A DNA stretch of 64,000 nt from Candidatus Micrarchaeota archaeon (GTDB lineage Archaea > Micrarchaeota > Micrarchaeia > Norongarragalinales > UBA8480), in the NCBI GenBank assembly GCA_043805855.1, contig JAZDHP010000005.1:1132-65131 (forward strand). The letters run 5' to 3'. This document shows positions 20,601 through 64,000 of the stretch, piece by piece. A program made the translations under genes and the position numbers. The notes under the pieces were generated by a model. The model saw only the letters and a program-made list of their open reading frames with translations. It was not told the DNA's origin and did not search any database. Numbering within the stretch: position 1 is the first letter of the stretch; each line of letters begins with the position of its first letter.

Positions 20601-21940
20601 GCAGTTAATGCTGGAATACCAAGGAAGTAGCCGCCGAATCTATATAAGGCAACTTCTGCGTTTGAAGCGGGAAACCCATCTTCGCGTACAACTACAGTAA
20701 CTGAAACTGAGTTTCCAGGAAGCACTTCTTCAAGGGCAATTGTTTTAACTGCGCCTGCTGCGATTCCAGCTAGGAAGCCAGGTAAGTAACCTTCACTATA
20801 AGCAGTTGCATATGCGTTTGTACTTTGCGAAACTGTAAATGTTGCTTCGCCGTTTGCGTTTGTATCTTGAGATTCAATTAAATTGTTAGACGCTGCGTCG
20901 AATAATTTTACAACGCCTTCAATTCCAGTTCTCTCGGCGTTTAGCAAAGTTATTGTAATTGTACTTTGCGGTGTTGAACGGCGAGCTAGTTGAATTGGTA
21001 ACTCGTTTGCGTTTGCAGTTGGAGTAAATTCCTGCGAGTAAGTTTCAAACTGCGGGTGCTTTACTTGAACTGTGAAAGCTTCGCCATATGAAACGTTTTC
21101 AAAAACTACACTGCCATCTTGATAAGTGCGTTCTTTTTTCTTTTCAACGCTAGTTGCAACGTCGATTAAAGTTACAACTGCATTTTGTACTCCGCTGCCC
21201 GCGGAAGAAACGTGAATTGTGAAATCTCCAACGCTAGTTGGATCCCGCTGCGTAAGCTGTACTGTTATTGTTATTGGCGTTGTGCTTTCAAGTTGTTCTA
21301 CTGTTACTGGCTGTTGAGTCGCTTGTACTCCAACAGCAGTTACAGAAATTGTTCCCTGCGATAGCATTGACTGCTCAACAGTTATTATCGCGTTGCCGCT
21401 TGCATCGGTTGTTGCCAACGGTGCGAAGTCACCGTTTGCAAATGTTAATTGCACTTGCGCACCTTGAACAGATTGACCTTGCGAGTCAACTACTCTAACA
21501 TTTACATCTTGAGTTTCTGGTTGCAGCGAGCGTAATGTAATCGAACCTGAAAGTGAAGAAACATCACGCGATGCTGGCGTAAATCCGTCTGCACTTACAC
21601 GTATAATTGCATTTACTGGAACGCCTTGTAGGCTAACAGTTCCATCTTGGCCTGCGCGTGTTTCTGAAATCGATTGGTTGTTTACTAGCACTTGTACAAC
21701 TGCTCCTGAAACTGACCTGCCGAGAGTGTCTTTAACTGTTAGTGAAACATTTTTCTTTTCTACAAACACCCCTGGCGCGAGGTAAAAAGCCGCAATTGCG
21801 AGTATTAATATTAAAACAAGCGGCACAATTAAATGTGGAAACGGCAATCCCTTTTCTGCTAGTTTTTCAACTAACTCTAGGTATTTTTCTTTTATATTTT
21901 GTAAAAAGTTTGGTTCAGCTTGTTCGGCCATTACACGCAC
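14660..21940 (-). CDS. Giant (2426 aa) cell-surface protein: N-terminal TM anchor, many Ig/CARDB/carboxypeptidase-regulatory-like beta domains, Cys-rich and Q/Y/G/N-rich low-complexity region
   Basis: Single uninterrupted 7.3-kb ORF. N-terminus ...PFPHLIVPLVLILILAIAAFYLAPGVF is a signal anchor. Motifs such as TVxDxxGxPVxGAxVxL recur. The low-complexity stretch is QYQQGYSQGYGQGYGQTYQGG...YNQAFQPYNQQQQ. Confidence 0.85.
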   Translation of the reverse strand: MRVMAEQAEPNFLQNIKEKYLELVEKLAEKGLPFPHLIVPLVLILILAIAAFYLAPGVFVEKKNVSLTVKDTLGRSVSGAVVQVLVNNQSISETRAGQDGTVSLQGVPVNAIIRVSADGFTPASRDVSSLSGSITLRSLQPETQDVNVRVVDSQGQSVQGAQVQLTFANGDFAPLATTDASGNAIITVEQSMLSQGTISVTAVGVQATQQPVTVEQLESTTPITITVQLTQRDPTSVGDFTIHVSSAGSGVQNAVVTLIDVATSVEKKKERTYQDGSVVFENVSYGEAFTVQVKHPQFETYSQEFTPTANANELPIQLARRSTPQSTITITLLNAERTGIEGVVKLFDAASNNLIESQDTNANGEATFTVSQSTNAYATAYSEGYLPGFLAGIAAGAVKTIALEEVLPGNSVSVTVVVREDGFPASNAEVALYRFGGYFLGIPALTAGGEGIANATIPLAVEGAAYKVYAKASKQSASGQSDVVDVTSAPLSLTVDLVAMPANVSITLKDLATDQLIPNGAIEALVEGIPVSSCTVLNGTCVLPVAANKEFTIRATAPGYLTYVTSTKTFSPAEQAKETVTLFPVSLAQSATVNFLGLFDSRGVKAKEVANAETYSAKFAVNMPQNVDENAGFYVQVGDEQTTAESSAVITSFNSNGAPYVQSDSELKSVESTENNGELDNSTTSTSATSTSSCYNGKTNAGEEMKWVYFSFPRGFTGTREFVVNVKVSKTAEAGAEIKINYKAFAFKDGLPLIYPSDTELLDSLRQQIDEGLRLTPEDTCQMRVVTQSIPVTQQTLTCTEDDVCWKAILFDSASQGNPSTYQPQIAKDFTFELELLSPVSIDSLGLTTEHFNVKNSRQTLSGLEKVSFADDGTATTTASAITTSGRTFNLPFTSLPNKKAKMSMTLTPLQVSQDAPLTFTLRSGSKTFQIPVQLTVSGTNAFTATIAPSTVPALQDSKITIVVRDKNNNYVETAAVGLYECANSPFSGNEPEQLLGDGSQNNGLTGRYRVDVNPTGLGEIGARVEAEGFKTLETCSVTVQGKNFLAIDPESMEFTGSSLEPQAQQVTLSNALNEPIRVATSINCGGDPVPLKVFPTSITIEPNSDSTLSLKILNNVTSNTNCLATFTARAGTYRVAEELPLMVDVECPGCINSAATGSDSSPLPGAITLITMPPFLQDSYSIPLRLSADPTCRLSGLRMNYAGQYQQGYSQGYGQGYGQTYQGGVLGGMPTPVLWWCTACTMPMNGQSQCNQCQQVTPSQWGCGACVPNPVTAPTSSQLPVHLSATCSACQTGQGAYQAQAFMSPLSYNGYQTPYNQAFQPYNQQQQVSYDRSTGGILRQDYGYGANQYNRPGAYPVGLPGSQYGPNYNNYNGNGYNQYQMGNGFSQNSVKDAVQIDECTKDAITVTADYSFVGQPYPATGNLEVTLPDGARKTIRVNVIAAPQGPMMGGPTGIPFGAQTWDAACGETETRKVSVTPAWKFASPVTVQLTCPIVFDKYKIISVQTKDNSELSQASCNAELKDNELITNCDFKDDAGAIKALENDGKVFVKLLVSSAQNVNAKVEVKIMATYEQTKVAKEAPEAQVQLNPAEPAEPPAHVEAPIVSASNKQPKIQVLAGTKDVCNGNAMSGEELTIKSSFPSGGNERKVIVTKQQTGGSFTDEQTFTGAKEADTQKYTVKGDTGQRFGFKASAIYPTGQKVSDDCIVTLTDRQLLIDKITPGYFKPATPATFNIFRLTFPEHLNRLTKVSTKVELDKTRLATLGKKDVYIAVQYSCKDKTTQKVTELNQKKYTLKAPNYKVADKTLAETAVDSLEFSRCDVGVNAVNEYTIKVELQTAAPVGGGVSTLETRYYQCVQKNGDPADCFRPTIVTTQAGQKAEGQATPLSFVNYPETPFSLPTELNKATFDACGRIGAPLTSAIELQKTNVDGTISYLKDGDAIAPGDSFILRLCTDPKYDGETAKFRVEYQNEIDQIGLIDLGSKQIYNGVSSVSFDASSFLAADVISNNHIKVKKPVAFRAEIESRPSSTRYMCKYWPNLNEDCHTSEAKASFRLDNTAYYDKNCVKISAPNPNWLRCQLEIGDSVQLATGQYFRLGGIDLSKPEIKFVTAYDPAFSDKMDCNLHYDNPIGLGDVLGRSGEGVGVGNSRICGESIDNVETPLLLAKFIQLKKKPKAFTGVGSVDVDVAEVELYSVFGPLDKWLNEDYHYNFDVYSDEDKLIRQVKFRKPIKKLADFAISDSDNTEGIYNFSVNDVTKLKISGTTAILRFVGTGNNNGQYLFEVRDNEKAIGRNCGGGNSIGLTGFALGLLCFAPGTNIAGCPIILGLAGAIGGISVENLWKAANPGPFFLPAKLDDTISCSASGLSPGISVRVLKTAEREYNLRSGNKVTLPQVCAVISNDGVSDELEGKDFKPDVNCNNAKNGDND

Positions 21941-44893: not shown

Positions 44894-47800
44894 ATGAATT
44901 TAAAAGGCAATTTAAGCGCATTTTTCATAATTATATTTACTCTTGAAATCTTCTCTCCATTAGCGTTCGCTTATACTCCGCTTCCACTTGGTTCGCCAGC
45001 AACAACAATACCAACTACAATTGGCTCGCGTTACAACGTTCCTGGCCAGTGTGAAGTTAATGAAATGACTCCCGAACAAGTGCAACTATTCTGGATACAA
45101 ACGCAGAACTTCCGCGGCGACCAAATTAACTCAAAAACAGACGAGGCGTTAATGACTACAAAACCATCTGGAACTACGATTAATTTAAACGTCAATAATT
45201 TTCCAGCTGACTCTGGCGAAAAAGTCCATCCATTTGTAGATATTGCACGGTTATTAGGCCTAGATGAAAAAAAGAGAAAAGAAGCAGCGCAGTTTCTTGG
45301 AAAAAGAGAAACAGATCGGATAAGCAACAAAGAAGCGCATCAACTTGCAAAGAAATATGAAAAAAACGAAGGTGAGTTCGGCACTTTGTTAGATGCTTTC
45401 CGCGGAACTGCAAGTGAAGAGAGTCCTGCTTATGAAAGCTATAAGTTGAAAACTAATGGCGGCGGCGAAATTCCTTCAACTGCATTGCAAGGCAAGACGC
45501 CAATTGACGAGTGTATAATTAACAACGCGCACGTGCAAGGCAAAGCTTCTTACGTTGTGTCAACTTCCAAAGACGTTGCAATTGCAGCTGACAGTTCCCA
45601 AACTCAAAGCGAAAAAGTAAACTTTTTACATTCAACTAACACGCTTGGCAGTTTAGACTTGCAAGGCGCAAGCACGTTGATAATACCAAAGCACTATAAG
45701 GAACTTGTAACTAGATTAAAAAAATGGCTAGCAGCTGACTTATTAGCTTCAATTGGGCAAACTACTGTTTTCTTTGGTGAAAAAAATGCACTTAGCAAAA
45801 GCCAAGAGAAGCTAAAGGAAATTGTAGAACGCAAAAGAGACTTTGGTTTAGACCAAATCGCTTTTAGCCGCATTCAAGACAGCCCACTGAAACTGGAAGT
45901 TTATGGACTCGGGAGTAGGCTAAGCGTTACAAAAAGCGAGCTACAACAGTCTGTTGAAAAAATGCAACTTAATTTCATACGAATGCATGCGGGAAACGTA
46001 GAAATCACAGACGACGTCATTGCGCGGTTAAACACAGACCCGCAGTTTGCAACGCGTTATAATTCATTGCAAAAAATTCAAAATGAACTTGAAAGTGCTA
46101 CGTCACTTAAACCAACTGACCCTGCAGATGATATTTATCAAAAGTATAAAAATGACCTTCACGGAGTAGCAGGAATAAATGACGCCGATCAAATTGAAAT
46201 TCAAAATGCGCAAGAACGATTAAGGACAAATCAAGATTATGTTAAAACACTTAATGATTTAAATGGAAAAACTTACAAAGCTGATCTAGAAAAGGTTAAA
46301 AGAAAACTGGCAGGTAGAACTGGGGAGTCTTGGTTTCGTTTAGCAATGGGAATGGCGTGGCTTGGACCTGGCCGCTTTGTGTTTGAATTAGCTGATGGCG
46401 TTGACTTTGTTCCAATTTCAAACAAGGCATTTGCAGAAAACTACGTTACAATAATGGCAGATAATACCGACTTAGCGGGAGAATTCAGGCGAGCAACAAA
46501 CTGGGTGTTATCTGGAACAGTTACTGACATGCTTTCAGATGCAACTGGCGAAGGCATTCCAACTGCAGCGTACCGCGTTGGGAATTTAATTATAGTTAAC
46601 AACCCAGTTGAAGATCAGACGGTAACCGGCACTTCAGTTACTAGCTTACAAAACAACGGCGGCAAATGGAACATAGGCACAGAATGGAAAGGAAAGTCAG
46701 ATGCATTAGTTGCAGAACAGCTAACAACTGAAAATGAATACGCTCGCTTGCCAATGGAAGTAAAAGGACAAGCTTGGAATTTGAAAATAAGGGCAAGGCA
46801 AGAATTTTCTACTTTTTATGACACAATGATATACCTAGCGCCGCTACTAAGTTGGCGAATACTAGGCGCAACAGATTATGCTGTAACAATTTTTAGAGTA
46901 GCAGTTTATGACTTTTACGTTACAGATTTTGTTAACCCTGCCGCGTTTAAGAAAGACGAAGTTTGCTCAGATGAAGAAATTGACAAATATGTAAATTGGT
47001 ATATGGGAGCAACTTTGGTAAACCAAGGCTTAGGTTGGGCGCCAATCTTAACCCCCTGGTTTAAAGGACTCAGTACAGTTACAAAAGTAAGCGCTGCTCT
47101 AAACAGCAAGACGAAGATTTTTACAGGGCCATTTATTGATAAATACGTAAAGTCAATAGGAAAGGTGCTTGACCCAGTTACCTTAGCACAGATGTACATT
47201 GCAGGTGAAGCATTGGACTACGCTTCAAATTGCAAGGACGACCAGTATACTATTTTAGCATACCAGCAGTTAAAGAAAAAGAGCGCAGCTACAATTTCAG
47301 ACAGATTACAGTCAATTGGAGGTAGTGATTTCTTAAGCAAGTTAAACGTCGGACAAGCAGTAAAGGGAGTTGGCCAGCAAGTTGACACAGCTACAATGTC
47401 TGAATACGTTAACTTCCGAGCTGTTTTGGAAAACCAAGTTTCTTCAATAACTGCAGATGAAATTTACTTCCTGCACTTTAAAGGCGATTCAATAGAATGG
47501 ATTAACAACATAAAAACAAACACGGCACAACCAGAAATGTGCCAACGCGAGTGCCTTGACAGTAAAACTAAAGTTTGCTGTAGAGATGCAACTGGAACCG
47601 AATGCACAGATAAAGCAACCGGCGTAAAAACACAAATAGCCGGCAAAGAAAGAAGTTTAATGGCAAAAAGATTTACCAACTTAGCGTTGGTTTTAACTCC
47701 AAACAAGTACATTTCAACTTCGCTTGGCGGCTGCCCCGGAAATATTTTACAAATTGACAGTAGTAAAAACATTCAATTAACAAGCGGTACAACTTGCACC

Positions 47801-48958
47801 GGCGGAACGTGCATCTTGAATCAATTACAGTATTTAACCGGCAGGCAAGTGAACAGTGACTTGACAAGCGTGCTTGGAAAAGTTACTGGAATTTACACTA
47901 CTAGCGGTTCAGTTCAAATTTCAGATGGAGCAATTAGGTTCAACCCGAGCGAAGCAATTAATGACCAAATGGAAATAAGAAGCCCAGGCGCAGGCGTAAT
48001 ACAAACCGCAAGTTCAAGCGAAGAGTTGGCTTACAAACAAGCAGCGATGCTTGCAATTGACAACAACGGCGGCGTTACACTCAGCGGTTACATTACTTCT
48101 AAATCACCTGAACAAGTGCCAGCCGGCGAACTTATAACAATAATGACCGAACGCGGTCGCATAAACTATATGGGCGGCGGGAGAGTACAAATATTCTTAC
48201 ACACACTAGCACAGGGAGACGCTGGTTTGATAAATGGATTTACAACAATGCCAGTTCAATACAACCAATGCCCCGGCTACAACGCACCTGGAATAAAAAT
48301 ATCTAATTTACAGGGATACGCTGGCCCCGGCGACCAAGTTGCCGCACAGTTAAACGCAGCTTTACAACAAATTCAAGGCTGTAACGGAATGCAAGTGCTT
48401 GAAACAAAAGATAAGAAAATAATGTTCGGAACAAACGCAAACGGAGAACCAGTTTTGAGAATTATTGACAAAAACACAGGAGAAGTTACCGAAGCGCGTA
48501 TAAATGGTCCAATTCGCCGAGAGGGTAACGAAATTATAGTTCCAACTGACAAGGGAGAATTTAGGTTCAATATAGGAATGGGCGAAAACGGCCAGCCAAT
48601 GCTTTCACTAACAGGACCAAACGGGTTACAAGAAAATGGCCCATTGTTAAGAGCAAATGGACTTGGCGGCATGTTAGTTTTTGACCCGGCAACAGGACAA
48701 TGGCATGTGTTAAACGGCCAAGATTTGGCAATGAACGACAACTTTGCAAAGTACGGCACATCATACGGCCGCGATACAAAAGGAAACTTCGTCGGCTCAC
48801 CTGGAGCAGACTTCCTGTCACCTTCATCTAAAAGAGTTTCAACAAGCGGCAACTCACTCGCTTCGCTACCTTCATGGCCAGAGGAATCGCCAATTTTGCT
48901 AGTAGTTATTGTACTTACGTTGTTAGCCGTTGCGTTTGTACGCTGGAGAAAAGTTTAA
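44894..48958 (+). CDS. Large secreted protein (1354 aa) with N-terminal signal peptide and C-terminal motif-TM-basic tail (sortase-type sorting-signal architecture)
   Basis: N-terminus MNLKGNLSAFFIIIFTLEIFSPLAFAYTP. C-terminus ...SLASLPSWPEESPILLVVIVLTLLAVAFVRWRKV-stop. Confidence 0.75.
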   Translation: MNLKGNLSAFFIIIFTLEIFSPLAFAYTPLPLGSPATTIPTTIGSRYNVPGQCEVNEMTPEQVQLFWIQTQNFRGDQINSKTDEALMTTKPSGTTINLNVNNFPADSGEKVHPFVDIARLLGLDEKKRKEAAQFLGKRETDRISNKEAHQLAKKYEKNEGEFGTLLDAFRGTASEESPAYESYKLKTNGGGEIPSTALQGKTPIDECIINNAHVQGKASYVVSTSKDVAIAADSSQTQSEKVNFLHSTNTLGSLDLQGASTLIIPKHYKELVTRLKKWLAADLLASIGQTTVFFGEKNALSKSQEKLKEIVERKRDFGLDQIAFSRIQDSPLKLEVYGLGSRLSVTKSELQQSVEKMQLNFIRMHAGNVEITDDVIARLNTDPQFATRYNSLQKIQNELESATSLKPTDPADDIYQKYKNDLHGVAGINDADQIEIQNAQERLRTNQDYVKTLNDLNGKTYKADLEKVKRKLAGRTGESWFRLAMGMAWLGPGRFVFELADGVDFVPISNKAFAENYVTIMADNTDLAGEFRRATNWVLSGTVTDMLSDATGEGIPTAAYRVGNLIIVNNPVEDQTVTGTSVTSLQNNGGKWNIGTEWKGKSDALVAEQLTTENEYARLPMEVKGQAWNLKIRARQEFSTFYDTMIYLAPLLSWRILGATDYAVTIFRVAVYDFYVTDFVNPAAFKKDEVCSDEEIDKYVNWYMGATLVNQGLGWAPILTPWFKGLSTVTKVSAALNSKTKIFTGPFIDKYVKSIGKVLDPVTLAQMYIAGEALDYASNCKDDQYTILAYQQLKKKSAATISDRLQSIGGSDFLSKLNVGQAVKGVGQQVDTATMSEYVNFRAVLENQVSSITADEIYFLHFKGDSIEWINNIKTNTAQPEMCQRECLDSKTKVCCRDATGTECTDKATGVKTQIAGKERSLMAKRFTNLALVLTPNKYISTSLGGCPGNILQIDSSKNIQLTSGTTCTGGTCILNQLQYLTGRQVNSDLTSVLGKVTGIYTTSGSVQISDGAIRFNPSEAINDQMEIRSPGAGVIQTASSSEELAYKQAAMLAIDNNGGVTLSGYITSKSPEQVPAGELITIMTERGRINYMGGGRVQIFLHTLAQGDAGLINGFTTMPVQYNQCPGYNAPGIKISNLQGYAGPGDQVAAQLNAALQQIQGCNGMQVLETKDKKIMFGTNANGEPVLRIIDKNTGEVTEARINGPIRREGNEIIVPTDKGEFRFNIGMGENGQPMLSLTGPNGLQENGPLLRANGLGGMLVFDPATGQWHVLNGQDLAMNDNFAKYGTSYGRDTKGNFVGSPGADFLSPSSKRVSTSGNSLASLPSWPEESPILLVVIVLTLLAVAFVRWRKV

Positions 48959-54319: not shown

Positions 54320-54705
54320 CGCTAATCTAATTCTAAATTAAAATAAAAAGTTTCGAAAAAAGTTTTTAAGGCTGATATTTAACGAGCTGTTAAGCAGGAT
54401 TAGAGGGAAGAGAAAAGCCAGTATTAATAATAATTTTGGCAATGGCAGTGTAGATATTACTATGTTTTTTGTATTGACCTTTAGTGACCGTTAGCTCGCC
54501 ACTCGCCCTTACGGGCTCGCGGTTTACACTTCGATTCTATCAAACCCATCTGCTATGGGCGGTCTAAGCTGGCTCGTTTTAGGATTGACTTCGTCCTTAG
54601 ATGCTTTCAGGACTTATCCAAATAGCGCGTGGCTACGCTGCGTGCCGTTTAAATCCAATTGACAACAGCTTAACTAGCGGCGCCGATTCCCCGTTCCTCT
54701 CGTAC

Positions 54706-55404
54706 TTAGGGAGTCTTACCCTCAGCCAGCAATGCACTTCTAGGAGATGCCACCGAACTGTCTTTGTCGCCTTTCTTAACAGCTTTCAACAATTCAAAAC
54801 GTAAAATCTTGTCATTATGACAAGAACCAACAAAATTATAGAATTTCAAAACTTCAGCACTTCCATGAATAATCAAGGCATACATCTTTACAGAAGTGCC
54901 TTTTTTCACGTAAGGGCCGCATACGCGGCCACACTTGATTCCAAAATTCAATATTATTTTTCTTATTTCTTCAAGAACACCTTTATTGGCCTGAGCGAGG
55001 TAAATTCGAATGTTTGCTTCAGGAACTATTCCCATTTTTTCAAAAGAGTTTATACTTCCTTCAGCGTCGAAAAAACCTTTAACATAAGCTGCTTTTACTT
55101 CTTGCGAACCACAATAAATCCAACTTGGAGTTAACCAAGTAGCTTGATCGCCCGTAAATTCAGCTAATTTTGAAAGTTTTTGAAAAACTTCCTTTGATGT
55201 TATACTCAAGCACCAGACACCATGTCTCTTGTCAAGATAAAAACTTGGTTTTTTGTTAAAATTATTTATTATAATTCTAGAAAGAACCTCAAGCCATTCT
55301 TTATTTTTTTGATAAAGCCGAATGCGATAAATTCCTTCTTTAGGAACGATGGAAAAACTTCCATCTCGCAGTGTCCCAATCAAATAAGCTACTTCTTTAT
55401 TCAT
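54706..55404 (-). CDS. LAGLIDADG homing endonuclease (intron-encoded, double-motif)
   Basis: 232 aa. YLIGTLRDGS and KGFFDAEGSI motifs. C-terminus reads into the downstream exon. Confidence 0.75.
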   Translation of the reverse strand: MNKEVAYLIGTLRDGSFSIVPKEGIYRIRLYQKNKEWLEVLSRIIINNFNKKPSFYLDKRHGVWCLSITSKEVFQKLSKLAEFTGDQATWLTPSWIYCGSQEVKAAYVKGFFDAEGSINSFEKMGIVPEANIRIYLAQANKGVLEEIRKIILNFGIKCGRVCGPYVKKGTSVKMYALIIHGSAEVLKFYNFVGSCHNDKILRFELLKAVKKGDKDSSVASPRSALLAEGKTP

Positions 55405-55493
55405 AGCTTGAGAACGGATTTTTAGTTTTTAAATCTTAAGCGACACGTGCTTGCCGGTGTTCCAGTGAATTGTTTACTTTTTGCTAAGAGAGG
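54768..55493 (-). mobile_element. 23S intron 1 (rRNA 3'-proximal) carrying a LAGLIDADG homing endonuclease ORF
   Basis: Conserved block GGGTTCAGAACGTCGCGA is interrupted (E. coli ~2595 region) and resumes at GACAGTTCGGTG. Boundaries +/-10 nt. Confidence 0.6.
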
Positions 55494-55651
55494 TCGCGAC
55501 GTTCTGAACCCAACTAACGTGACTTTTTAATGGATGAACAACCCAACCCTTGGTGGCTCCTGCACCACCAGGATAAGTCGAGCCGATAGCGATGTACCAA
55601 ACCGCGCCGTCGATATATTCAATCGAAAACACCTTTGCAGATGTTTTATCA

Positions 55652-56600
55652 AAACCGCAGAAGAAAAATAAATTCACTTCCGGATTCTGAAACGAACAAA
55701 CGGAGCCTACGAGTCGTATGGTTCAAATGTTCTTGCGTTTCTCCCTTTTTTACAAAGTTAACACTGATCTGAAAAAGCCACTAACAATTAAATTAATTCC
55801 TAGTTGCAATTCTATCTAGTGCAACTTTGCCAAGGAAAAACGAAGACTTTGAATAAACTCGTTGGTTCTATTGCCGAATGTTCATGAAAAATGAACTCTC
55901 GGGCGCGACGAGCCTGTATAGAGTTTTCGATTTCAATTCATCACTAGCAAATTAAAATAATTTGTTTAAAGCATTTAGCTTTTCTGGATGCTCGATGCCA
56001 ATACAATCGCGAAAACGTGCAATGTTCTGCACGCCGCGTATGTTTAGCTGCCCAATGTCTCTGGAATTAGTTATCTTGTTAGAAACTATTCCAAAACTTT
56101 CAAGCATCTGCGCTATAAGCGCAAGTTTCAACGTGTCTTTTTGGTATATTTCAATTCTATAAGACGTTCCAGGTTTTCTTTTTGGAACGCTCCCCTCTGC
56201 GTCGAAAAATCCCCTTATGAAATGTGCTTTCACTTGAAGATCTTCATCCAACAGAGAAGGTAGATTTTGCATTGCGTTTTTTATTTCAAAAAACGCTTGC
56301 TTTGAATATATCCTTACTCGATAAAGTTCGCCTTTTGCCTCGCGTTTTCTAACTTTTGTATATTTGCCATAGACTTTTTCAAATCTAGGTAAAATAGAAT
56401 TAGCGAGCCAAGCGGCTACTTTCTGCTCATACTCAATACAATATTCCCCTCTTGCCTTGCATTGATACAAACAACCATCACCAAAAGCGCCTAGTAAATA
56501 GGCGAAATCTTGATTCATATTGATTGCAAGGAAATGTTGAATTTAAAGCTTGAGCTACACGTCGTTGCCAGTGATTTTGCGAATTGAAAACGAAATTACC
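55652..56600 (-). mobile_element. 23S intron 2 carrying a LAGLIDADG ORF. Inserted after GCTACCCTGGGGGTAA (the I-CreI/I-DmoI-type region of domain V).
   Basis: The exon sequence GGGGAUAACAGG is broken after GGGGGTAA at ~56600 and homology resumes near 55650 (..ATATCGACGGCGCGGTTTGGTACATCGCTATCGGCTC). Boundaries +/-25 nt. Confidence 0.55.
55952..56518 (-). CDS. LAGLIDADG homing endonuclease (intron-encoded)
   Basis: 188 aa. YLLGAFGDGC and RGFFDAEGSV motifs. Confidence 0.75.
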   Translation of the reverse strand: MNQDFAYLLGAFGDGCLYQCKARGEYCIEYEQKVAAWLANSILPRFEKVYGKYTKVRKREAKGELYRVRIYSKQAFFEIKNAMQNLPSLLDEDLQVKAHFIRGFFDAEGSVPKRKPGTSYRIEIYQKDTLKLALIAQMLESFGIVSNKITNSRDIGQLNIRGVQNIARFRDCIGIEHPEKLNALNKLF

Positions 56601-56811
56601 CCCAGGGTAGCTTGTCTGTCAGAAAGGACTCCCATTAACGGAGATGCCTTTGTTCGTTAAGCCCCACTTTCGTGTCTGCGTTCCATTTTGTTAAGAACAC
56701 AGTCAGGCCAGCATTTGTCTTTAACCCTCTACAGCGGATTTCTAACCCGCTTGAGCTGACCATTAGGCGCCTTTGTTATTTTTTCGAAGGCGTACCGCTT
56801 ACTGGCTTTCC

Positions 56812-57590
56812 ATAGCAAGCAAAAGTCCATAAAAAATATTTTACTTAACGAAGCAAATGCTTCGTTAAGGCCTTACACCTTTTAAGGTGTAAGTTAACCG
56901 GCACGGAGGTGTCGGTTAAAGTTTAAAAGCAACTAACTTCATCTCTTTGGTCGATGGATGAAAATTTAGCTACGCTTATTGGCATGTTATTGTCAGATGG
57001 ATCTGTATATTTCGACAAATCCAAGGGAACCTATTGTATTCAGTTCACTAACAAAAACAGCCAAATGCTTGAGTATTTCAAATTTTTAGTTCTCCAATGT
57101 TTTGGACGGCGCAATTTTCACATTAATAAATGTAAAAACGCGGTTTCTGTTCGCTTCTTCTCTAAAGGAATTGCTGAATTTCTTTTTACATTTTCTCCAT
57201 CTTTCAGAACCTTGCGGTTTAAAAATGGAACGTATCCAGAAACTAGAATTCCAAAAGAAGTGTTTGCTGAACAAAAATTCGCCGTTGCATTTCTACGCGC
57301 TTATGCGTCTTGCGATGGATGTATTTATTCCAACGAAAGTCACAACGCAGTTATAGAAATTGCATGCGTTCATCCTAAATTGAAACAGCAACTTTTTGAG
57401 TTACTTGAAACTCTCGGAATCGAAAGTTTAGTAACTGCAAAAGGAATTCGAATTTATCGTAGAAGCGAAGTTGAAAAATTCGCAACTACAATTCGTTTCC
57501 TTCCAGAAAGTACCGTTGTTCAATCTAGTTCTCCTAACTTAGGAAAACTAAAGAATGAAATTTTGGACTCTTGTTTATCTTGCCACAAGA
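56812..57590 (-). mobile_element. 23S intron 3. Its homing endonuclease ORF is on the plus strand, antisense to the rRNA.
   Basis: Exon homology (GGTGGATAGTTTGACTGGG, ~E. coli 2235-2255) stops near 57590 and resumes near 56810 (GAAAGCCAGTAAGCGGTACGCC). The rRNA-3' side of the intron carries the 60-nt element shared with the 16S ORF-less intron. Confidence 0.5.
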
Positions 57591-57619
57591 AAACACCCAG
57601 TCAAACTATCCACCTGTAG
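56954..57619 (+). CDS. LAGLIDADG homing endonuclease encoded antisense to the 23S rRNA
   Basis: 221 aa. LIGMLLSDGSVYF and LRAYASCDGCIY motifs. Last ~10 codons overlap the exon. Confidence 0.65.
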   Translation: MDENLATLIGMLLSDGSVYFDKSKGTYCIQFTNKNSQMLEYFKFLVLQCFGRRNFHINKCKNAVSVRFFSKGIAEFLFTFSPSFRTLRFKNGTYPETRIPKEVFAEQKFAVAFLRAYASCDGCIYSNESHNAVIEIACVHPKLKQQLFELLETLGIESLVTAKGIRIYRRSEVEKFATTIRFLPESTVVQSSSPNLGKLKNEILDSCLSCHKKTPSQTIHL

Positions 57620-57908
57620 CTGTTCCACTTCTTACATGAAGTGGTGAGATTCGCAGTCAAAGCAGAGCAGTGTTACACTTTCGCCTATTCGCACCCCGGA
57701 AGGTGCGACATAGCGGCTCCTGCTTACGCTGTGCAGTTTCAACCGTGAATCAACCACAGGCTATAGTTAAGCTCCATGGGGTCTTCGTTTCCCCCTAGAA
57801 GTTCCTGGCATGTTCACCAGGTAGTAAGTTCACCAGGTCCAAAGCAGGGACAGTGGGAGGCTCGTTACGCCATTCATGCGAGCCGCCAATTAAGCGGCGA
57901 GGTATTAC

Positions 57909-58628
57909 GCTCATGTCTGTTACACGCGTTTAAAAAATACGCGGGGTCAACCATTTCTGTTGACCTCTGCATATCGCTATGCAGATCGGACTATATCTTC
58001 ACCATTTCTGGCGTTTAGCGTATAGTCTCTGAGGATTCTAAATAAAACGGAATCGTCTTTCTGTTCATTGTGGAAATTATTCCAGCTATTTTGTCAAGTC
58101 CTTCCTTTGTTAAGTGTTGCTTTGCTTCCATGATTGAAAGAATTTCTGCAAATTTTTCCAAGTTCTTTTGTTTGGAAGTTTGCAATTTGTACCGTTTGAA
58201 GAATTCTACTATTAATTTCAAATTCTTTAAACCGCGTACGCGAAATTCTTTTCGATCACCGTGGTTTACAGTTACTTCTCCAAAACCAAAATATTCTTTG
58301 ATTCGGTAAAGCACTTGTTCATCACGTTGATGCTGCACAACTCTAAATTCTGGAAGAACCGTCCAGCCGGCGGACATTTTCTCTAGCTTGTTTATAGCTA
58401 CATGAAAACATCCTTCTCCGTCAACGAACCCAACGATCCAGTTTGGATTTAGTCTTTCCTGCTGATTGTCTGCACTCATAACATTGTCATTACAGCTCAC
58501 GTGTTTTTGATTTAAATTTAAATCGCAACACGTCATTGCCGGTAATAGTTTGAGATACCCCAGAGTTTCCAGCATATAGCTAAATTTTGTTAAGGCAAAT
58601 GTAATCTTACCTTAAGAGACTCAGAGTT
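57909..58628 (-). mobile_element. 23S intron 4 carrying a LAGLIDADG ORF. Inserted after ..CTTAAGGTA (E. coli ~1917 region, a known archaeal LSU intron site).
   Basis: CCUAAGGUA|GCGAAAUUCC is interrupted. The exon resumes at GCGTAATACCTCGCCGCTTAATTGGCGGCTCGCATGAATGGCGTAACGA (~57905). Confidence 0.55.
58015..58575 (-). CDS. LAGLIDADG homing endonuclease (intron-encoded)
   Basis: 186 aa. WIVGFVDGEGCFHV motif. Confidence 0.7.
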   Translation of the reverse strand: MLETLGYLKLLPAMTCCDLNLNQKHVSCNDNVMSADNQQERLNPNWIVGFVDGEGCFHVAINKLEKMSAGWTVLPEFRVVQHQRDEQVLYRIKEYFGFGEVTVNHGDRKEFRVRGLKNLKLIVEFFKRYKLQTSKQKNLEKFAEILSIMEAKQHLTKEGLDKIAGIISTMNRKTIPFYLESSETIR

Positions 58629-59227
58629 TAGACTGTCAGAGTTCCGTAGAACGCTGAATTAGTCCCGCTCTTTAGCAGTCCTTCATTGGGTTGAAACCCA
58701 ACTTCAGATACTACCAGTGAGCAGGCGTCACCCTCCGTACAAAACGTTTCCATCTTGCGGAGAGCTGTGTTTTTGATAAACAGTCGACCTCCCCTAGTTA
58801 TTGCAACCTACAGGTCCATACTTGATGTAATCTCGTACAAAAGTGTAGGCACCCCTTTTCCCGAAGTTACGGGGCTGACTTGCCGAGTTCCCTTGCTTTG
58901 GTTCTCCTGCCACGTCTTGGCTTTCTCTGCCAGGGGCACCTGTACTGGTTCTAGGTACGATCTCACGACTCGCTTCTTGCACTGTTTTCAGGGGCTCATG
59001 GATTCGGTTTGTATTTCCTAGCTTGAACAAGTGCTCTTCACAACGAAACTTCCTTGTTCTATTCTAGTTAAACGCTCAAGGAAATGAGCGCCAAACTTAT
59101 CCACAAGCGTCTAATGCAAGCTTGTGTTACCACGAGCTGTCGCGAGGCACACGAATATTAACGTGTTTCCCTTTCCGCTTTAATCACCGTTACGTGTAGC
59201 GTTAGGATCGGCTTACTCTTGGTCGAC

Positions 59228-59330
59228 TCGCTGAACCTTTTCTTTCTCAAAGAAATAAAACGTTCACGAAAAGAAAGATTTTAATTTTCTTTTCCGTAGA
59301 CGCTTTTCTTTTCCCAAAAGAAAAGGGTCT
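59228..59330. repeat. Cluster of three short A/T hairpins (CTTTTCTTT-N-AAAGAAAAG type) forming an expansion segment inside 23S
   Basis: ccttttctttctcaaagaaataaaacg / cgaaaagaaagattttaattttcttttccg / cgcttttcttttcccaaaagaaaaggg. Same hairpin family as in the ITS and tRNA introns. Confidence 0.6.
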
Positions 59331-60961
59331 CTAGCGTTGCCAAGAAACCCGTGCCCTTCCGACGTTGGAGTTTCTCACTCCAAATTGATGCTACTAATAC
59401 CAAGATATTCATTACTATTTAGTCCACACGTCCTCACGAACGTGCTTCGACCCAAACAGTACGCCCTCCTACCAAATCTACGCTTGTCTGCGTAGTTTTA
59501 CAGTATCGGTGACTGACTTTAGTCCCGATAGTTTGCAGCGCTTCGATTCTTGATGGATCCGCTGTTACGCGTTGTTTAAAGGATGGCTGCTTCTGAGCCT
59601 ACCTCTCCACTGTCTGAGAATCAAAACGCCTTTTGTTTACACTTAGCCAGTACTTTGGGACCTTAACTACAATAGGGGTCGTTCCCCTTCAGGAGTACGC
59701 GCTTACCTCGTACATCCCAACTCCCACCTTCTAAGGCAATACTAGCTTCGGAGTTCGACAAGAAAGTGAGGATTTTACTCCCCGCTCTTTCTGATCGGTC
59801 GCTCTACCTAGTATTCGCCTCCAGCGAGGCTGTCCTGCGGGACACTTCGGAGGGAACCTGCTAATGCCCAGCTCGAATGAACTTTCATCCCTAAACCCGA
59901 GTCACCCGATCGGATAAACCAGAAACGGTTGCAGGCCTCCACCAACCTGTAGGTCGGCTTCGCCTTACTCGGGCATAGATCGCATGGGCTTCAGGTTTCA
60001 CAATAGTGACTTATGGCCAGTTACGACCACTCTCCTGGCGTCTTGCGACGTTGCGAGAATTTTGGTTTCCCTGTGCATATTGCTCGCCACTCTCGTGAAC
60101 TCCTTGGCTCTTGCTTCGAGAAGTATGACGCAACGCTGGTCCCCCTTGCGGAGGTCCTTTCACGCCGCGCCTTCTTGTTACCATTTAGTTTCAGGCACTT
60201 TGAACTCCCCTTTCGGGGTTCTTTTCAGTTTTCCCTCTCGGTACTTAATTCACTATCGGTCTTGAGTTATATTTAGCGTTGCAAGTTAATACTCGCGCGT
60301 TCACATTCCCAAATCGGGGAACGCTACTCTGGACACTCGCACACCTTGAACTTCAGCGCTTACAGGGCTATCACCTTGTTGCGCGAAACTTTCCAGTTCT
60401 CTTCAGCTAAGAAATTCAAGTGTTAAAAGCGAGGCCAAACACCACATGTACGCCTCCTTGCGGGGCGAATTCGGTTTGCACTATTCTGCGTTCGTTCGCA
60501 CTAATAACAGAATCTCGAGTTTGATTTCTTTTCCTCTCCCTACTAAGATATTTCAATTCAGGAGGTTCGCAATCCTTTCGGATCAATTAAGACACCCACG
60601 GTTCAATGCCTGCATGCGGCTACCCGTGGCTTTTCGCAGCTTGCCGCGTCCTTCATCGCTACTCAAGCCTAACCATCCACTAAACGGTTTTAAAAGCAAG
60701 TAACATCTATTCTACCATTGCCAAAACGTATTTGAAACTTATACTTCTAAGTTTAAAATTGTTTTAACGTGGCTTTTTCTTCCCTCTAATTTTTGCCTAC
60801 TTAACAGCTTCACGTCTACAGCGGCTCGGAGCCACTGCATTATCAGCCTTATTCAGATTTAGCAAAGCCCGCATAAGAGGAACGGGTTTATATTTTGCAA
60901 ACCTACATTTTTTCGAACAACAAAACGCGCCATTTAAACGCATTCTATTTAGAAACTTGAA

Positions 60962-61225
60962 TGGACTCGACGGGATTTCCTTCACCCGTTTTCTTTTAAG
61001 GCAAAAGGCCTTTCATTCCAAAAGAAAAAAAATCAAAACAGTTTTTATGAAAACTATTTTTTCTTTTGGGGGTGACGGACCTTTTCTTTGTAAAAGAAAA
61101 GGGATGTCTTTGAACCCGCGACCTCCTGCTTTTCTGAGAAAAGAAATTTTCTTTTCGTCGACGTTTTCTTTTTGAAAAGAAAAGGTCGCTGCAAAGCAGG
61201 CGCGCTACCACTGCGCTACGAGCCC
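60962..61225 (-). tRNA. tRNA-Ala (anticodon UGC) with two introns: canonical 37/38 (59 nt, 61131..61189) and T-loop 59/60 (133 nt, 60976..61108). No encoded CCA.
   Basis: Hand-folded. Exon 1 GGGCUCGUAGCGCAGUGGUAGCGCGCCUGCUUUGCA (61225..61190). Exon 2 AGCAGGAGGUCGCGGGUUCAAA (61130..61109). Exon 3 UCCCGUCGAGUCCA (60975..60962). Gives a 7-bp acceptor with the G3:U70 Ala identity pair, 4-bp D stem, 5-bp anticodon stem (CCUGC/GCAGG), and T stem GCGGG/CCCGU. Lies in the 16S-23S spacer, as in typical archaeal rRNA operons. Confidence 0.7.
60976..61190. repeat. ITS / tRNA-intron hairpin repeats (CTTTTCTTTT-N4-8-AAAAGAAAAG family)
   Basis: ccttttctttgtaaaagaaaaggg (61080-61103), cgttttctttttgaaaagaaaagg (61161-61185), ttttcttttaaggcaaaaggcc / ccaaaagaaaaaaaatc (60988-61035). 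Both tRNA introns are built largely from these hairpins. Confidence 0.6.
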
Positions 61226-61929
61226 ATTTATTGTAAATAGAGTTTTTTGAAATTGTTTTTGGAAAGAAATGGCGTTTGAAAATTTAGGGACTAGATCTAG
61301 TCTGTATTCTATCGATTGCACAAAAAATGTTTGGAGGTGATCTAACCGCAGGTTCCCCTACGGTTACCTTGTTACGACTTAACCCTCCTCACGAACTAAT
61401 AGCTTGAATCAATCCGTTGGACTGAGCCTCACTAAAAGCTCGCTTGGGTGGCTTGACGGGCGGTGTGTGCAAGGAGCGGGGACATATTCACCGCGCGATG
61501 ATGACACGCGATTACTAGTCATTCCAGCTTCACGAGGATGAGTTTCAACCCTCGATCCGAACTTAGGTAAAGTTTTGGGGATTGCCTTCGCCTTTCGGCG
61601 TCGGAACTCATTGTCTTTACCATTGTATGCCACGTGTGGCCCAGGAAATTCAGGCCATACTGACCTAGCGTCGCCTTCTCCTTCCTCCCACTTAACGTAG
61701 GCAGTCTTCACAGAGTGCCCCTTACATTACTGTAAAGGTAGCAACTGTAAACGAAGATCTCGCTCGTTGCAGGACTTAACCTGACACCTCACGGCACGAG
61801 CTGACGCTGGCCATGCAACACTTCTCAGCTTGTCGGCCAAGATCTTTAGTCTGGGCTTCATTCTGCTGTCTTTCCTGGTGAGTTTCCCGGCGTTGAGTCC
61901 AATTGAACCGCAGCTTATGGAGCTAAGAG

Positions 61930-62242
61930 AAACACGGAAAATAATTATTAAATTTTCCCAACTAAGTTTATAAAAAAAGCTAAATGCTAATTTTTATTTT
62001 TTTAAAAATAGATATTAGTGGCTACAGGTTATTTAGTAAAAAAGTTAACTTACACCTTTTAAGGTGTAAGGCCTTAACGAAGCGAAAGCTTCGTTAAGTA
62101 AACTGGAAATTTTTGCGATCAATTGGCATATTGAGCTCGCTGAATTTTGTTGGTAACTTTACGTGTGGTAAATTTACCTTACAGTTTTCTTTTTAATTTA
62201 CGAAATAAAATGTAGCAGTGTATTCTCGAAGCTTATCCACGA
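61930..62242 (-). mobile_element. 16S intron B (~310 nt, no ORF), inserted after GCACCACAAG (E. coli ~920 region)
   Basis: The exon continues canonically to CACAAG at 62243. Homology resumes at ..CTCCATAAGCTGCGGTTCAATTGGACTCAACGCCGG (~61925). The intron contains the palindromic 60-nt element shared with 23S intron 3. Lower boundary +/-10 nt. Confidence 0.55.
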
Positions 62243-62278
<36 letters not shown>

Positions 62279-62384
62279 ATCTTGCGACCGTACTCCCCAA
62301 GTGGCAGACTAAACGGCTTCCCTACGGCACTGCATTCGCTCGAAGCAAATGCAACGCCAAGTCTGCATAATTTACTGCTAGGAC

Positions 62385-63011
62385 TTTCCGGCACTAGCTA
62401 GCTATATAAAAAGTTAAACCTATTCACGTTCAACGCGCCTGTGATGTCTATTCTAAAGCCACCATCAGAGCATCGACTGAGCGAACAGGCAATTTTATCT
62501 GCTTTTAACACTTTCACTATTTTCGTTATCGCTTTCTCGTTGTATATCTCAAAAGCGATACGTGGTTTGTTTCTCCACAGATAGCTATAAGCTTCTGCAT
62601 CGAATAAACCTTTTGTAAAAGCGCGGAAAAACTTTTTATTACTAAAATTTGGAATCACAAAAGTTTTACTTTTGTTTCTACCTTGGCAATGTAATAATTT
62701 TCTCAATTCAGCTTCAATTTTTACTGAATAAATTGAAATTAAATACATTTCGTGACCGTCGGAATATTTTCTCTTTTTTACTATTGGTTTTTTGCCAAAA
62801 ACTCTTTGCATTAGTTCAGCAATTTCAACTGACCTTTGTAAATATTTTGTACCAATAGAAATTCCGCGGCTTTGAAACCACCCATCTCCGGCAAATAATC
62901 CAAGTAAATAACAAAAATCCTTTGAATACATAGATTAGTTATTTGTATTGAATTATTAAGCTCATCGAGACAGGTCGTTGCCGGTGATTCCGGCTAATTA
63001 GCTAACTAGTG
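62385..63011 (-). mobile_element. 16S intron A (~627 nt) with LAGLIDADG ORF, inserted between GGATTAGATACCCGGGTA and GTCCTAGC (E. coli ~800 region)
   Basis: Exon homology breaks at 63011 and resumes at 62384 (GTCCTAGCAGTAAATTATGC). Confidence 0.6.
62398..62931 (-). CDS. LAGLIDADG homing endonuclease (16S intron-encoded)
   Basis: 177 aa. YLLGLFAGDGW and KGLFDAEAYS motifs. Confidence 0.75.
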   Translation of the reverse strand: MYSKDFCYLLGLFAGDGWFQSRGISIGTKYLQRSVEIAELMQRVFGKKPIVKKRKYSDGHEMYLISIYSVKIEAELRKLLHCQGRNKSKTFVIPNFSNKKFFRAFTKGLFDAEAYSYLWRNKPRIAFEIYNEKAITKIVKVLKADKIACSLSRCSDGGFRIDITGALNVNRFNFLYS

Positions 63012-64000
63012 TACCCGGGTATCTAATCCGGTTTGCTCCCCTAGCCTTCGCCCCTCACCGTCGGACGTGTCTTGGTACGACGCTTTCGCCACTGGTGGTC
63101 CTGCAAGGATTACAACATTTTACCGTTCCCCCTGCAGTACCTCGTACCTCCTCCACTCCCTAGTCTGGTAGTGTTCCCTGCTCGCCTCTAAGTTAAGCTT
63201 AGAGATTTGACAGGAAATTTTCCAAACCGGCTACGGGCGCTTTAGACTCAATATTCGTGGACACCACTCGTGCTACCTGTATTACCGCGGCGGCTGGCAC
63301 AGGATTTACCCACCACTTATTCTCCAAGCTATTCAAGCTTAGTAAAAGAATCCCTTTCGGGAATCACTCGGATTACCCCCGTCACGCTTTCGCGCATTGC
63401 GGAATTTTCGCGCCTGCTGCACCCCGGAGGGCTTGGGCCCTTGTCTCAGTGCCCATCTGGGGGCCATCACTCCCATGACCCCTACTGATTATAGGTTTGG
63501 GGGTCCGTTACACCTCCAACAGCCTAATCAGCCGCAGTCCCATCCTAGAGCGAAACCATTCCAATTCATGGCTCTTTTTACTCTTTCACCATTCCAGGTT
63601 GAAAGAGCTATGCAGTATTAGCGACACTTTCGCGTCGTTATTCCACTCTCTAGGGTAGGTTGACTACGTGTTATTCAGCCGTACGCCAAGACTCGAAGTC
63701 GAGTCTTTAGACTTGCATGGCTTAATCGCAATCCGATAGCGGTGTCCTCCAGCAGGATCAACTGGTGTTGAAGAACCGGTTTACCCGGTTCTCTGCTTGA
63801 GTCGCAATTTCAAGTAGGAATTGACTTTCTCTACTCCGCTAAATTTTTTTCTCACCCATTTCTTTCGAAATTTCAAAAAACCCTACGTCAAACCCAAGAC
63901 GAATGACTACGCGGTAGTTTGACTCGTTTAATTGAGTTTCCATAAAAAACTAGCACAGCTCGTAAACGTTTACTCGCCGAAGGAGAAACCTAAAGGTTCC

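Follow-up and report, generated by a model that had tools for sequence, protein, structure and literature searches.

A tRNA-Ala(UGC) gene between the 16S and 23S rRNA genes is a known feature of archaeal operons, and its textbook version is uninterrupted. The locus described here raises the question of whether a 264-nt stretch in that same spacer can be a working gene for a 72-nt tRNA and, if so, how the intervening nucleotides would be removed. It lies in a stretch of 64,000 nucleotides, analysed as a whole and called the window below, from a Candidatus Micrarchaeota MAG (DPANN): the leucyl-tRNA synthetase encoded at 24868..27747 matches a protein of a 'Candidatus Micrarchaeota archaeon' MAG at 100% identity, all of its close homologues are from Micrarchaeota, and the 16S rRNA is 95-98% identical to that of another Micrarchaeota MAG, L002. 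The gene runs from 61225 to 60962 on the minus strand as a 264-nt precursor within the 16S-23S spacer (Table 1). A first-pass annotation had placed it at 60962..61225, an interval that proved exact; by Rfam, its strand is the same minus strand as that of the 16S and 23S genes. It resembles the textbook archaeal spacer tRNA-Ala(UGC) in identity, place, strand and flanking rRNA processing stem, and differs from it in its introns, of which the window and most sampled Micrarchaeota relatives have one or two, intron-less versions being found for example in L006. The evidence set out below indicates that this is most likely a real and functional gene.

Table 1. Coordinates of the spacer tRNA-Ala gene, its parts and the surrounding rRNA operon in the window.
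Feature	Coordinates	Strand	Remarks
16S rRNA gene	61332..63768	-	Rfam; upstream of the tRNA; two insertions
16S insertion, 620 nt	62392..63011	-	Relative to L002 16S; carries a LAGLIDADG ORF
LAGLIDADG ORF	62398..62931	-	In the 16S insertion
16S insertion, 320 nt	61915..62234	-	Relative to L002 16S
16S processing stem, 3' strand	61236..61328	-	Pairs with 63788..63887 upstream of 16S; ends ~10 nt before the tRNA 5' end
Exon 1, 36 nt	61190..61225	-	tRNA positions 1-37: acceptor 5' strand, D arm, anticodon stem 5' strand, loop to A37, anticodon UGC
Anticodon-junction central helix, exon strand U32-U33-U34-G35	61192..61195	-	Predicted pairing with intron CAGA 61133..61136
Intron 1, 59 nt, canonical 37/38	61131..61189	-	Two U4CU4/A4GA4 hairpins; predicted three-way junction with the central helix
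Intron 1 hairpin A	61159..61188	-	
Intron 1 hairpin B	61138..61156	-	
Exon 2, 22 nt	61109..61130	-	A38, anticodon stem 3' strand, variable loop AGGUC, T-stem 5' strand GCGGG, T-loop U54-A59
T-junction central helix, exon strand U54-U55-C56-A57	61111..61114	-	Predicted pairing with intron AGGA 60978..60981
Intron 2, 133 nt, T-loop 59/60	60976..61108	-	Long nested hairpin; base helix CAUCC/GGGUG adjoins the splice junction
Intron 2 base helix CAUCC/GGGUG	61102..61106 with 60983..60987	-	
Exon 3, 14 nt	60962..60975	-	U60, T-stem 3' strand CCCGU, acceptor 3' strand CGAGUCC, discriminator A73
23S rRNA gene	54481..60704	-	Starts at 60704, downstream of the tRNA, and extends to about 54481; six insertions
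23S insertion, ~99 nt	59232..59330	-	BLAST vs L012
23S insertion, 744 nt	57912..58655	-	BLAST vs L012
LAGLIDADG ORF	58015..58575	-	23S
23S insertion, 797 nt	56799..57595	-	BLAST vs L012
LAGLIDADG ORF	56954..57619	+	23S; strand opposite to the rRNA
23S insertion, 678 nt	55918..56595	-	BLAST vs L012
LAGLIDADG ORF	55952..56518	-	23S
23S insertion, 274 nt	55617..55890	-	BLAST vs L012
23S insertion, 730 nt	54764..55493	-	BLAST vs L012
LAGLIDADG ORF	54706..55404	-	23S

When the three exons are joined in silico, the resulting 72 nt are called tRNA-Ala(tgc) by ARAGORN. The spliced product has a cloverleaf structure, the alanine anticodon UGC, the G3·U70 pair that marks alanine identity, and discriminator A73. 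Its acceptor stem comprises 7 bp, the D stem 4 bp, the anticodon stem 5 bp and the T stem 5 bp, with G49·U65 among the last, and its D-loop is one nucleotide short. The cloverleaf had earlier been described as perfect; all of its stems do pair, but two of the pairs (G3·U70 and G49·U65) are wobbles. The sizes proposed for the introns (59 and 133 nt), the product (72 nt) and the gene (264 nt) were reproduced exactly. CCA is not encoded at the 3' end of the tRNA, where the next bases are TTC. The acceptor, D, anticodon and T stems all form in the unconstrained minimum free energy (MFE) fold of the 264-nt precursor as well (-94.3 kcal/mol).

Prediction from the unspliced DNA is another matter. ARAGORN makes no tRNA call there, with or without its intron option, and the Rfam tRNA model scores 26.5 bits, over the 5' part of the gene only, which falls below the gathering score of 29. 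The first-pass annotation had named a failure of the tools, or a different placement of the exons, as grounds for giving up the gene; ARAGORN accepts the exons once they are spliced, and relatives place them identically. Removal of intron 2 only led ARAGORN to a tRNA-Leu(taa) with an intron at 33/34, a candidate that we rejected in view of G3·U70 and the intron-less orthologues. A 'tRNA-Phe' with a 1100-nt intron, called at 20315..21505 by ARAGORN -i on the whole window, is spurious, being located inside an ORF of 2426 aa, and no other tRNA was detected in the 64-kb window by ARAGORN or by Rfam at E ≤ 0.05. The 2426-aa ORF itself (14660..21940, minus strand) has N-terminal CarboxypepD_reg and Ig-like repeats, and a second giant ORF (44894..48958, plus strand, 1354 aa) is without a Pfam match, as are more than half of the scanned ORFs ≥150 aa in the window. 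Both giant ORFs are typical of DPANN surface proteins. The annotation gap at the tRNA gene has practical consequences. The gene goes unreported by ARAGORN and by Rfam at its curated threshold, so a Micrarchaeota MAG annotated with such tools would appear to have no spacer tRNA-Ala, and a tRNA missed in this way lowers the tRNA counts that genome-quality standards use.

Relatives of the gene were sought with the 36-nt exon 1 in species-representative genomes and with its 30-nt core in metagenomes. The 19 loci retrieved correspond to 14 distinct complete genes and one further gene, L014, that is cut by a contig end. Because these loci were retrieved by exact match to exon 1, the conservation of that exon (identical in 18/19 by search design) is circular, and the independent evidence is limited to exons 2 and 3 and to where the introns sit. 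With the inserts at 37/38 and 59/60 removed, all 14 complete genes yield a 72-nt tRNA-Ala(tgc) in ARAGORN. These spliced orthologues are identical to the window tRNA at 66-72 of 72 positions, the differences being mostly compensatory stem changes, and in relatives whose loci span both rRNAs the tRNA is again found in the 16S-23S spacer.

Introns are distributed among these loci in every possible way. There is none in L003, L006 and L019; L012 has the 37/38 intron only (51 nt); the 59/60 intron occurs by itself in L001 (37 nt), L004/L010 (44), L005 (48), L011 and L017 (43) and L015 (35); and both are present in the window (59+133), L002 (62+145), L008 (63+135), L009 (35+33) and L014 (59, the second being truncated by the contig end). 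The anticodon-loop introns, 35-63 nt in length, are always at 37/38. The T-loop introns, which range from 33 to 145 nt and are shared with 10 other distinct complete relatives and the truncated L014, are always at 59/60 and are unrelated in sequence. What the orthologues have in common is therefore the positions of insertion, with intron sequence and length free to vary and intron-less alleles among them.

Both junctions of the window gene are predicted to fold in the same manner. Intron nucleotides n-5..n-2 form pairs with the start of the loop (its first four nucleotides, 32-35 or 54-57), and the last two intron bases together with the first base of the next exon form a 3-nt bulge against the stem. 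At the anticodon junction the central helix is complete (U-A, U·G, U-A, G-C) and has 3 nt on each flank (C36-A37/G and A-A/A38, where the slash marks the cut); 4/4 pairing of this kind is reached by 2.3% of random position pairs in the window, and only one of the 24 central-helix cells across six lineages is unpaired. At the T junction three of four pairs form (U-A, U·G, C-G, followed by an A57·A mismatch) above the 3' bulge A-A/U60; with one G·U among its three pairs and a mismatch at the fourth position, this T-junction motif is weaker than that of any relative. Over nine distinct T junctions 92.6% of cells are paired, as opposed to 31-64% with slid partners, and 0/500 shuffles reach either the pairing or the covariation score observed. 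Three of the T-junction pairs show compensatory changes; at 57:n-5, two lineages have A-U, two have G-C, four have A·G, and the window by itself has A·A. The partner proposed for each 5' site, with 5/5 outer-helix pairs and ≥3/4 central pairs, is the sole one of its kind for the T-loop and the best for the anticodon loop.

The 3' side of each motif is that of an archaeal BHB, with a 3-nt bulge between the exon helix and the central helix at both introns. The strict hBHBh' arrangement of the 5' side, a 3-nt bulge followed by an inner helix, is seen at neither window intron: the central helix and two hairpins meet in a three-way junction, with the 5' site of intron 1 in one of its linkers, 3 nt long, and the 5' site of intron 2 is located in a 5×2 internal loop that precedes the helix CAUCC/GGGUG. 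In these predicted folds the window motifs belong to the relaxed hBH/BHL class. The BHB-competent precursor fold is calculated to lie ~6 kcal/mol above the MFE (-88.2 vs -94.3). Compensatory changes among the window, L002 and L008 (CGAC/GUCG, CAAC/GUUG and GAG/CUC) preserve the helix beyond the 5' site of intron 1. Strict motifs occur in L009 and L012, and near-strict ones, in which the 5' site has a 3×1 internal loop, in L004, L010, L011 and L017. Inspection of the four junctions for BHB motifs, the check that the first-pass annotation had recommended, has thus found BHB-type geometry at all of them, strict at the 3' sites and relaxed at the 5' sites.

The exact boundaries need more than the window itself. 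Runs of A leave the intron ends ambiguous in its sequence (36/37 or 37/38 for the first intron, 56/57 to 59/60 for the second), and it is the 3-nt-bulge rule together with the relatives that sets them at 37/38 and 59/60. We consider it quite unlikely that the gene is real but has its T-loop intron at 56/57, 57/58 or 58/59. Such a shift draws on the sequence TTCAAA/G...GGAAA/T of the window, which allows four equivalent cuts with the same mature product, and on the loose internal loop in which the 5' site lies. However, U60 cannot pair with U54 and the 3-nt bulge adjoins the T stem, which fixes the 3' cut before U60; moreover, in L011 (intron end ...GAAAU) and L001 (...AAAG) only a 59/60 position restores the UUCAAAU of the intron-less orthologues.

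Substitution patterns bear on whether the gene is still in use. Between the window, L002 and L008, where intron 1 has homologues of 62 and 63 nt in the latter two, exons are 98.6-100% identical whereas introns drop to 52-68% with many indels, and the window exons show no substitution relative to L002 and 2/72 differences from the intron-less L006. Conserved exons alongside diverged introns suggest selection on the mature tRNA only. This counts against a decaying pseudogene, that is, a former spacer tRNA-Ala broken by hairpin-rich junk after which alanine decoding was taken over by another copy. Invisibility to standard tools, insertions that litter the whole operon and a T-junction motif that is the most degenerate of the series would all suit such decay, but the insertions in the tRNA are exactly where a BHB-type motif forms, and they occupy the same two positions in many lineages. 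An intact intron-less tRNA-Ala(UGC) elsewhere, which the first-pass annotation had said would point to a pseudogene, did not turn up: each of the six GTDB representative genomes with the exon-1 36-mer, among them that of L002, the closest double-intron relative, has a single copy of it. A pseudogene is accordingly very improbable. That the T-loop insertion escapes EndA and is retained, self-spliced or cleaved to leave a two-piece tRNA is hardly credible, for although the 5' site in the window departs from a strict BHB and group I intron matches occur in the window operon (sub-threshold) and in relatives' rRNA, the tRNA region (60600..61400) has no match to group I or any other ribozyme family among Rfam covariance models even at E ≤ 10, T-loop introns of 33-37 nt in relatives are too small for a ribozyme, a retained 133-nt insert would abolish the T-loop/D-loop interaction, and a substrate of EndA requires a central helix such as the covarying one.

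Judged from sequence comparison, the locus is very probably a tRNA-Ala(UGC) gene that functions and carries two introns of the EndA type, one at 37/38 and the other at 59/60. Its expression might proceed as follows. The operon would be transcribed as a single 16S-tRNA-23S precursor, in which the anticodon stem and the T stem would each extend into a short central helix made of loop nucleotides 32-35 or 54-57 and the last intron nucleotides. This helix would set the 3' splice site in the 3-nt bulge and the 5' splice site two nucleotides past its end. The archaeal splicing endonuclease EndA could then cut all four sites, an RtcB-type ligase would join the three exons, and RNase P, RNase Z and the CCA-adding enzyme would finish the ends. 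Position 59/60 is the structural twin of 37/38, as both follow the sixth nucleotide of a 7-nt loop on a 5-bp stem, and this equivalence would explain why the same enzyme can use it. In Micrarchaeota we would expect EndA to be of the broad-specificity ε2 type, which is known from ARMAN-2 of the same phylum (PMC3239211, PMC3488258). The tRNA_int_endo domain of EndA is absent from the 39 scanned of the 42 window ORFs ≥150 aa.

In archaeal rRNA operons generally, spacer tRNAs are coupled to the processing of rRNA, and we infer the same for the maturation of this tRNA. The strands flanking the 16S gene form a processing stem of -63.7 kcal/mol, compared with -32.2 ± 4.3 (minimum -44.4) in 100 shuffles, and the predicted position of this stem next to the tRNA is consistent with co-processing. 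A clean, strict BHB was not found in the 16S processing stem; what it has is an untidy 1×3 / 4-bp / 3×3 region that could, as modelled, be a degenerate BHB. The downstream strand of the stem also contains the palindrome ACUAGAUCUAGU. The role of EndA in archaeal rRNA and tRNA maturation is reviewed in PMC7714728.

The rRNA genes on either side are themselves heavily interrupted. By BLAST against the uninterrupted L012, the 23S gene has six insertions and measures ~6.2 kb, not 4.25 kb; because of the insertions, the 3' end that Rfam assigns to it at 56452 is wrong, the true end lying ~2 kb beyond. Five LAGLIDADG homing-endonuclease ORFs are located inside or overlap rRNA insertions, one in 16S and four in 23S. 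A sub-threshold Rfam group I intron match at 57967..58146 in 23S (minus strand, 35.5 bits vs a gathering score of 50) adjoins one of them and is the only such match in the window. Matches above the gathering score are present near the 16S 3' end in L008 (100..334) and L010 (2852..3102). Group I introns have been described in archaea, Micrarchaeota among them (PMC6125680).

The two tRNA introns had been described as largely A/T hairpin repeats, and the folds bear this out with U4CU4/A4GA4 hairpins in both: intron 1 is little more than two of them, and intron 2 is a nest of such hairpins. A strict form of the motif has five matches in the window against 0.00 expected. These come from three sites, two of which match on both strands, and none falls outside the two tRNA introns and a single 23S insertion. 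That insertion (59232..59330, minus strand, ~99 nt) holds three U4CU4/A4GA4-type hairpins, the same module as in the tRNA introns. A hairpin of the U5CU5/A5GA5 type (CCCTTTTTCTTTTTACGAAAAAGAAAAAG) also closely follows the tRNA in the spacer of L002 (around 7431+279, minus strand), so the hairpin module is not limited to introns in that genome. The further copies that would mark a dispersed, MITE-like mobile element were not found within the 64 kb: blastn-short searches of the window with both introns returned only the introns themselves and low-complexity matches of 11-21 nt (E ≥ 0.002). C/D-box sRNA signals, which the euryarchaeal tRNA-Trp intron carries, were looked for in both introns and none was seen.

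In the reading preferred here, polypyrimidine/polypurine hairpin modules have inflated both introns in the sub-lineage made up of the window, L002 and L008. A bolder proposal, which we regard as unlikely, is that the U4CU4/A4GA4 hairpins are a lineage-specific self-accreting insertion module that inflates EndA-dependent introns and small rRNA insertions in this clade. Were it true, an ordinary T-loop intron of 35-50 nt would have become one of 133-145 nt, and a strict BHB would have turned into a three-way-junction substrate still accepted by the ε2 endonuclease, so that the orthologues would form a natural series for the growth of archaeal introns and the limits of the enzyme's substrate tolerance.

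The closest known systems come from the same phylum. In ARMAN-2 (Candidatus Micrarchaeum acidiphilum) 56% of tRNA genes are disrupted (Fujishima et al. 2011, PMC3239211). Its pre-tRNA-Cys(GCA) has a 13-nt intron at 59/60 with a relaxed hBH motif, its pre-tRNA-Pro(GGG) has introns at 53/54 and 59/60 with strict hBHBh' motifs, and the ε2 endonuclease cuts both strict and relaxed ARMAN-2 substrates in vitro (PMC3239211). The window gene resembles the pre-tRNA-Cys(GCA) in phylum, in intron position and in a relaxed hBH/BHL motif of which one site has a proper bulge and the other a loose structure. It differs in the length of that intron, 133 nt as opposed to 13; the ARMAN-2 gene is for another isoacceptor and is interrupted only once, and no rRNA-spacer location is described for it. 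With the pre-tRNA-Pro(GGG) it shares the property of being a multi-intron Micrarchaeota tRNA interrupted at 59/60; there, however, both introns are in the T-loop, whereas the window gene has one at 37/38 and relaxed 5' sites at both.

The first-pass annotation had cited Thermoproteales as a precedent for non-canonical intron positions. Position 59/60 is indeed among the recognised non-canonical tRNA intron sites (review PMC4090602), but the proper comparator is ARMAN-2, in the organism's own phylum (PMC3239211). According to Marck & Grosjean 2003 and Sugahara et al. 2008, summarised in PMC4090602 and PMC4033280, Thermoproteales and other archaea with (αβ)2-EndA have multi-intron tRNAs with canonical and non-canonical introns and relaxed hBH/HBh' motifs, and their introns show signs of transposition between tRNA genes. 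The window gene is like these in combining a canonical with a non-canonical intron, in the use of a listed position (59/60) and in its relaxed motifs. It is unlike them in phylum and in the endonuclease architecture expected, and its introns have no second copy in the 64 kb. Since relaxed 59/60 introns of ARMAN-2 are cleaved in vitro, the split gene is less unusual than the first-pass annotation had implied.

Mechanism, position, relaxed motif and phylum all have precedent. What is specific here is that the tRNA is an rRNA-spacer tRNA-Ala, that a canonical and a T-loop intron occur together, that the T-loop intron reaches 133 nt, and that every combination of intron presence and absence is found in one orthologous gene across the phylum. 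Our literature search found no published description of the window gene, which is weak evidence of novelty as literature coverage is incomplete. We regard the gene as a solid new example of a documented type of split tRNA, with no new mechanism. What ARMAN-2 had shown in a single genome becomes, with the comparative series, a phylum-wide pattern for one orthologous gene, and the series supplies natural substrates with which to probe the tolerance of the ε2 endonuclease for relaxed BHB motifs.
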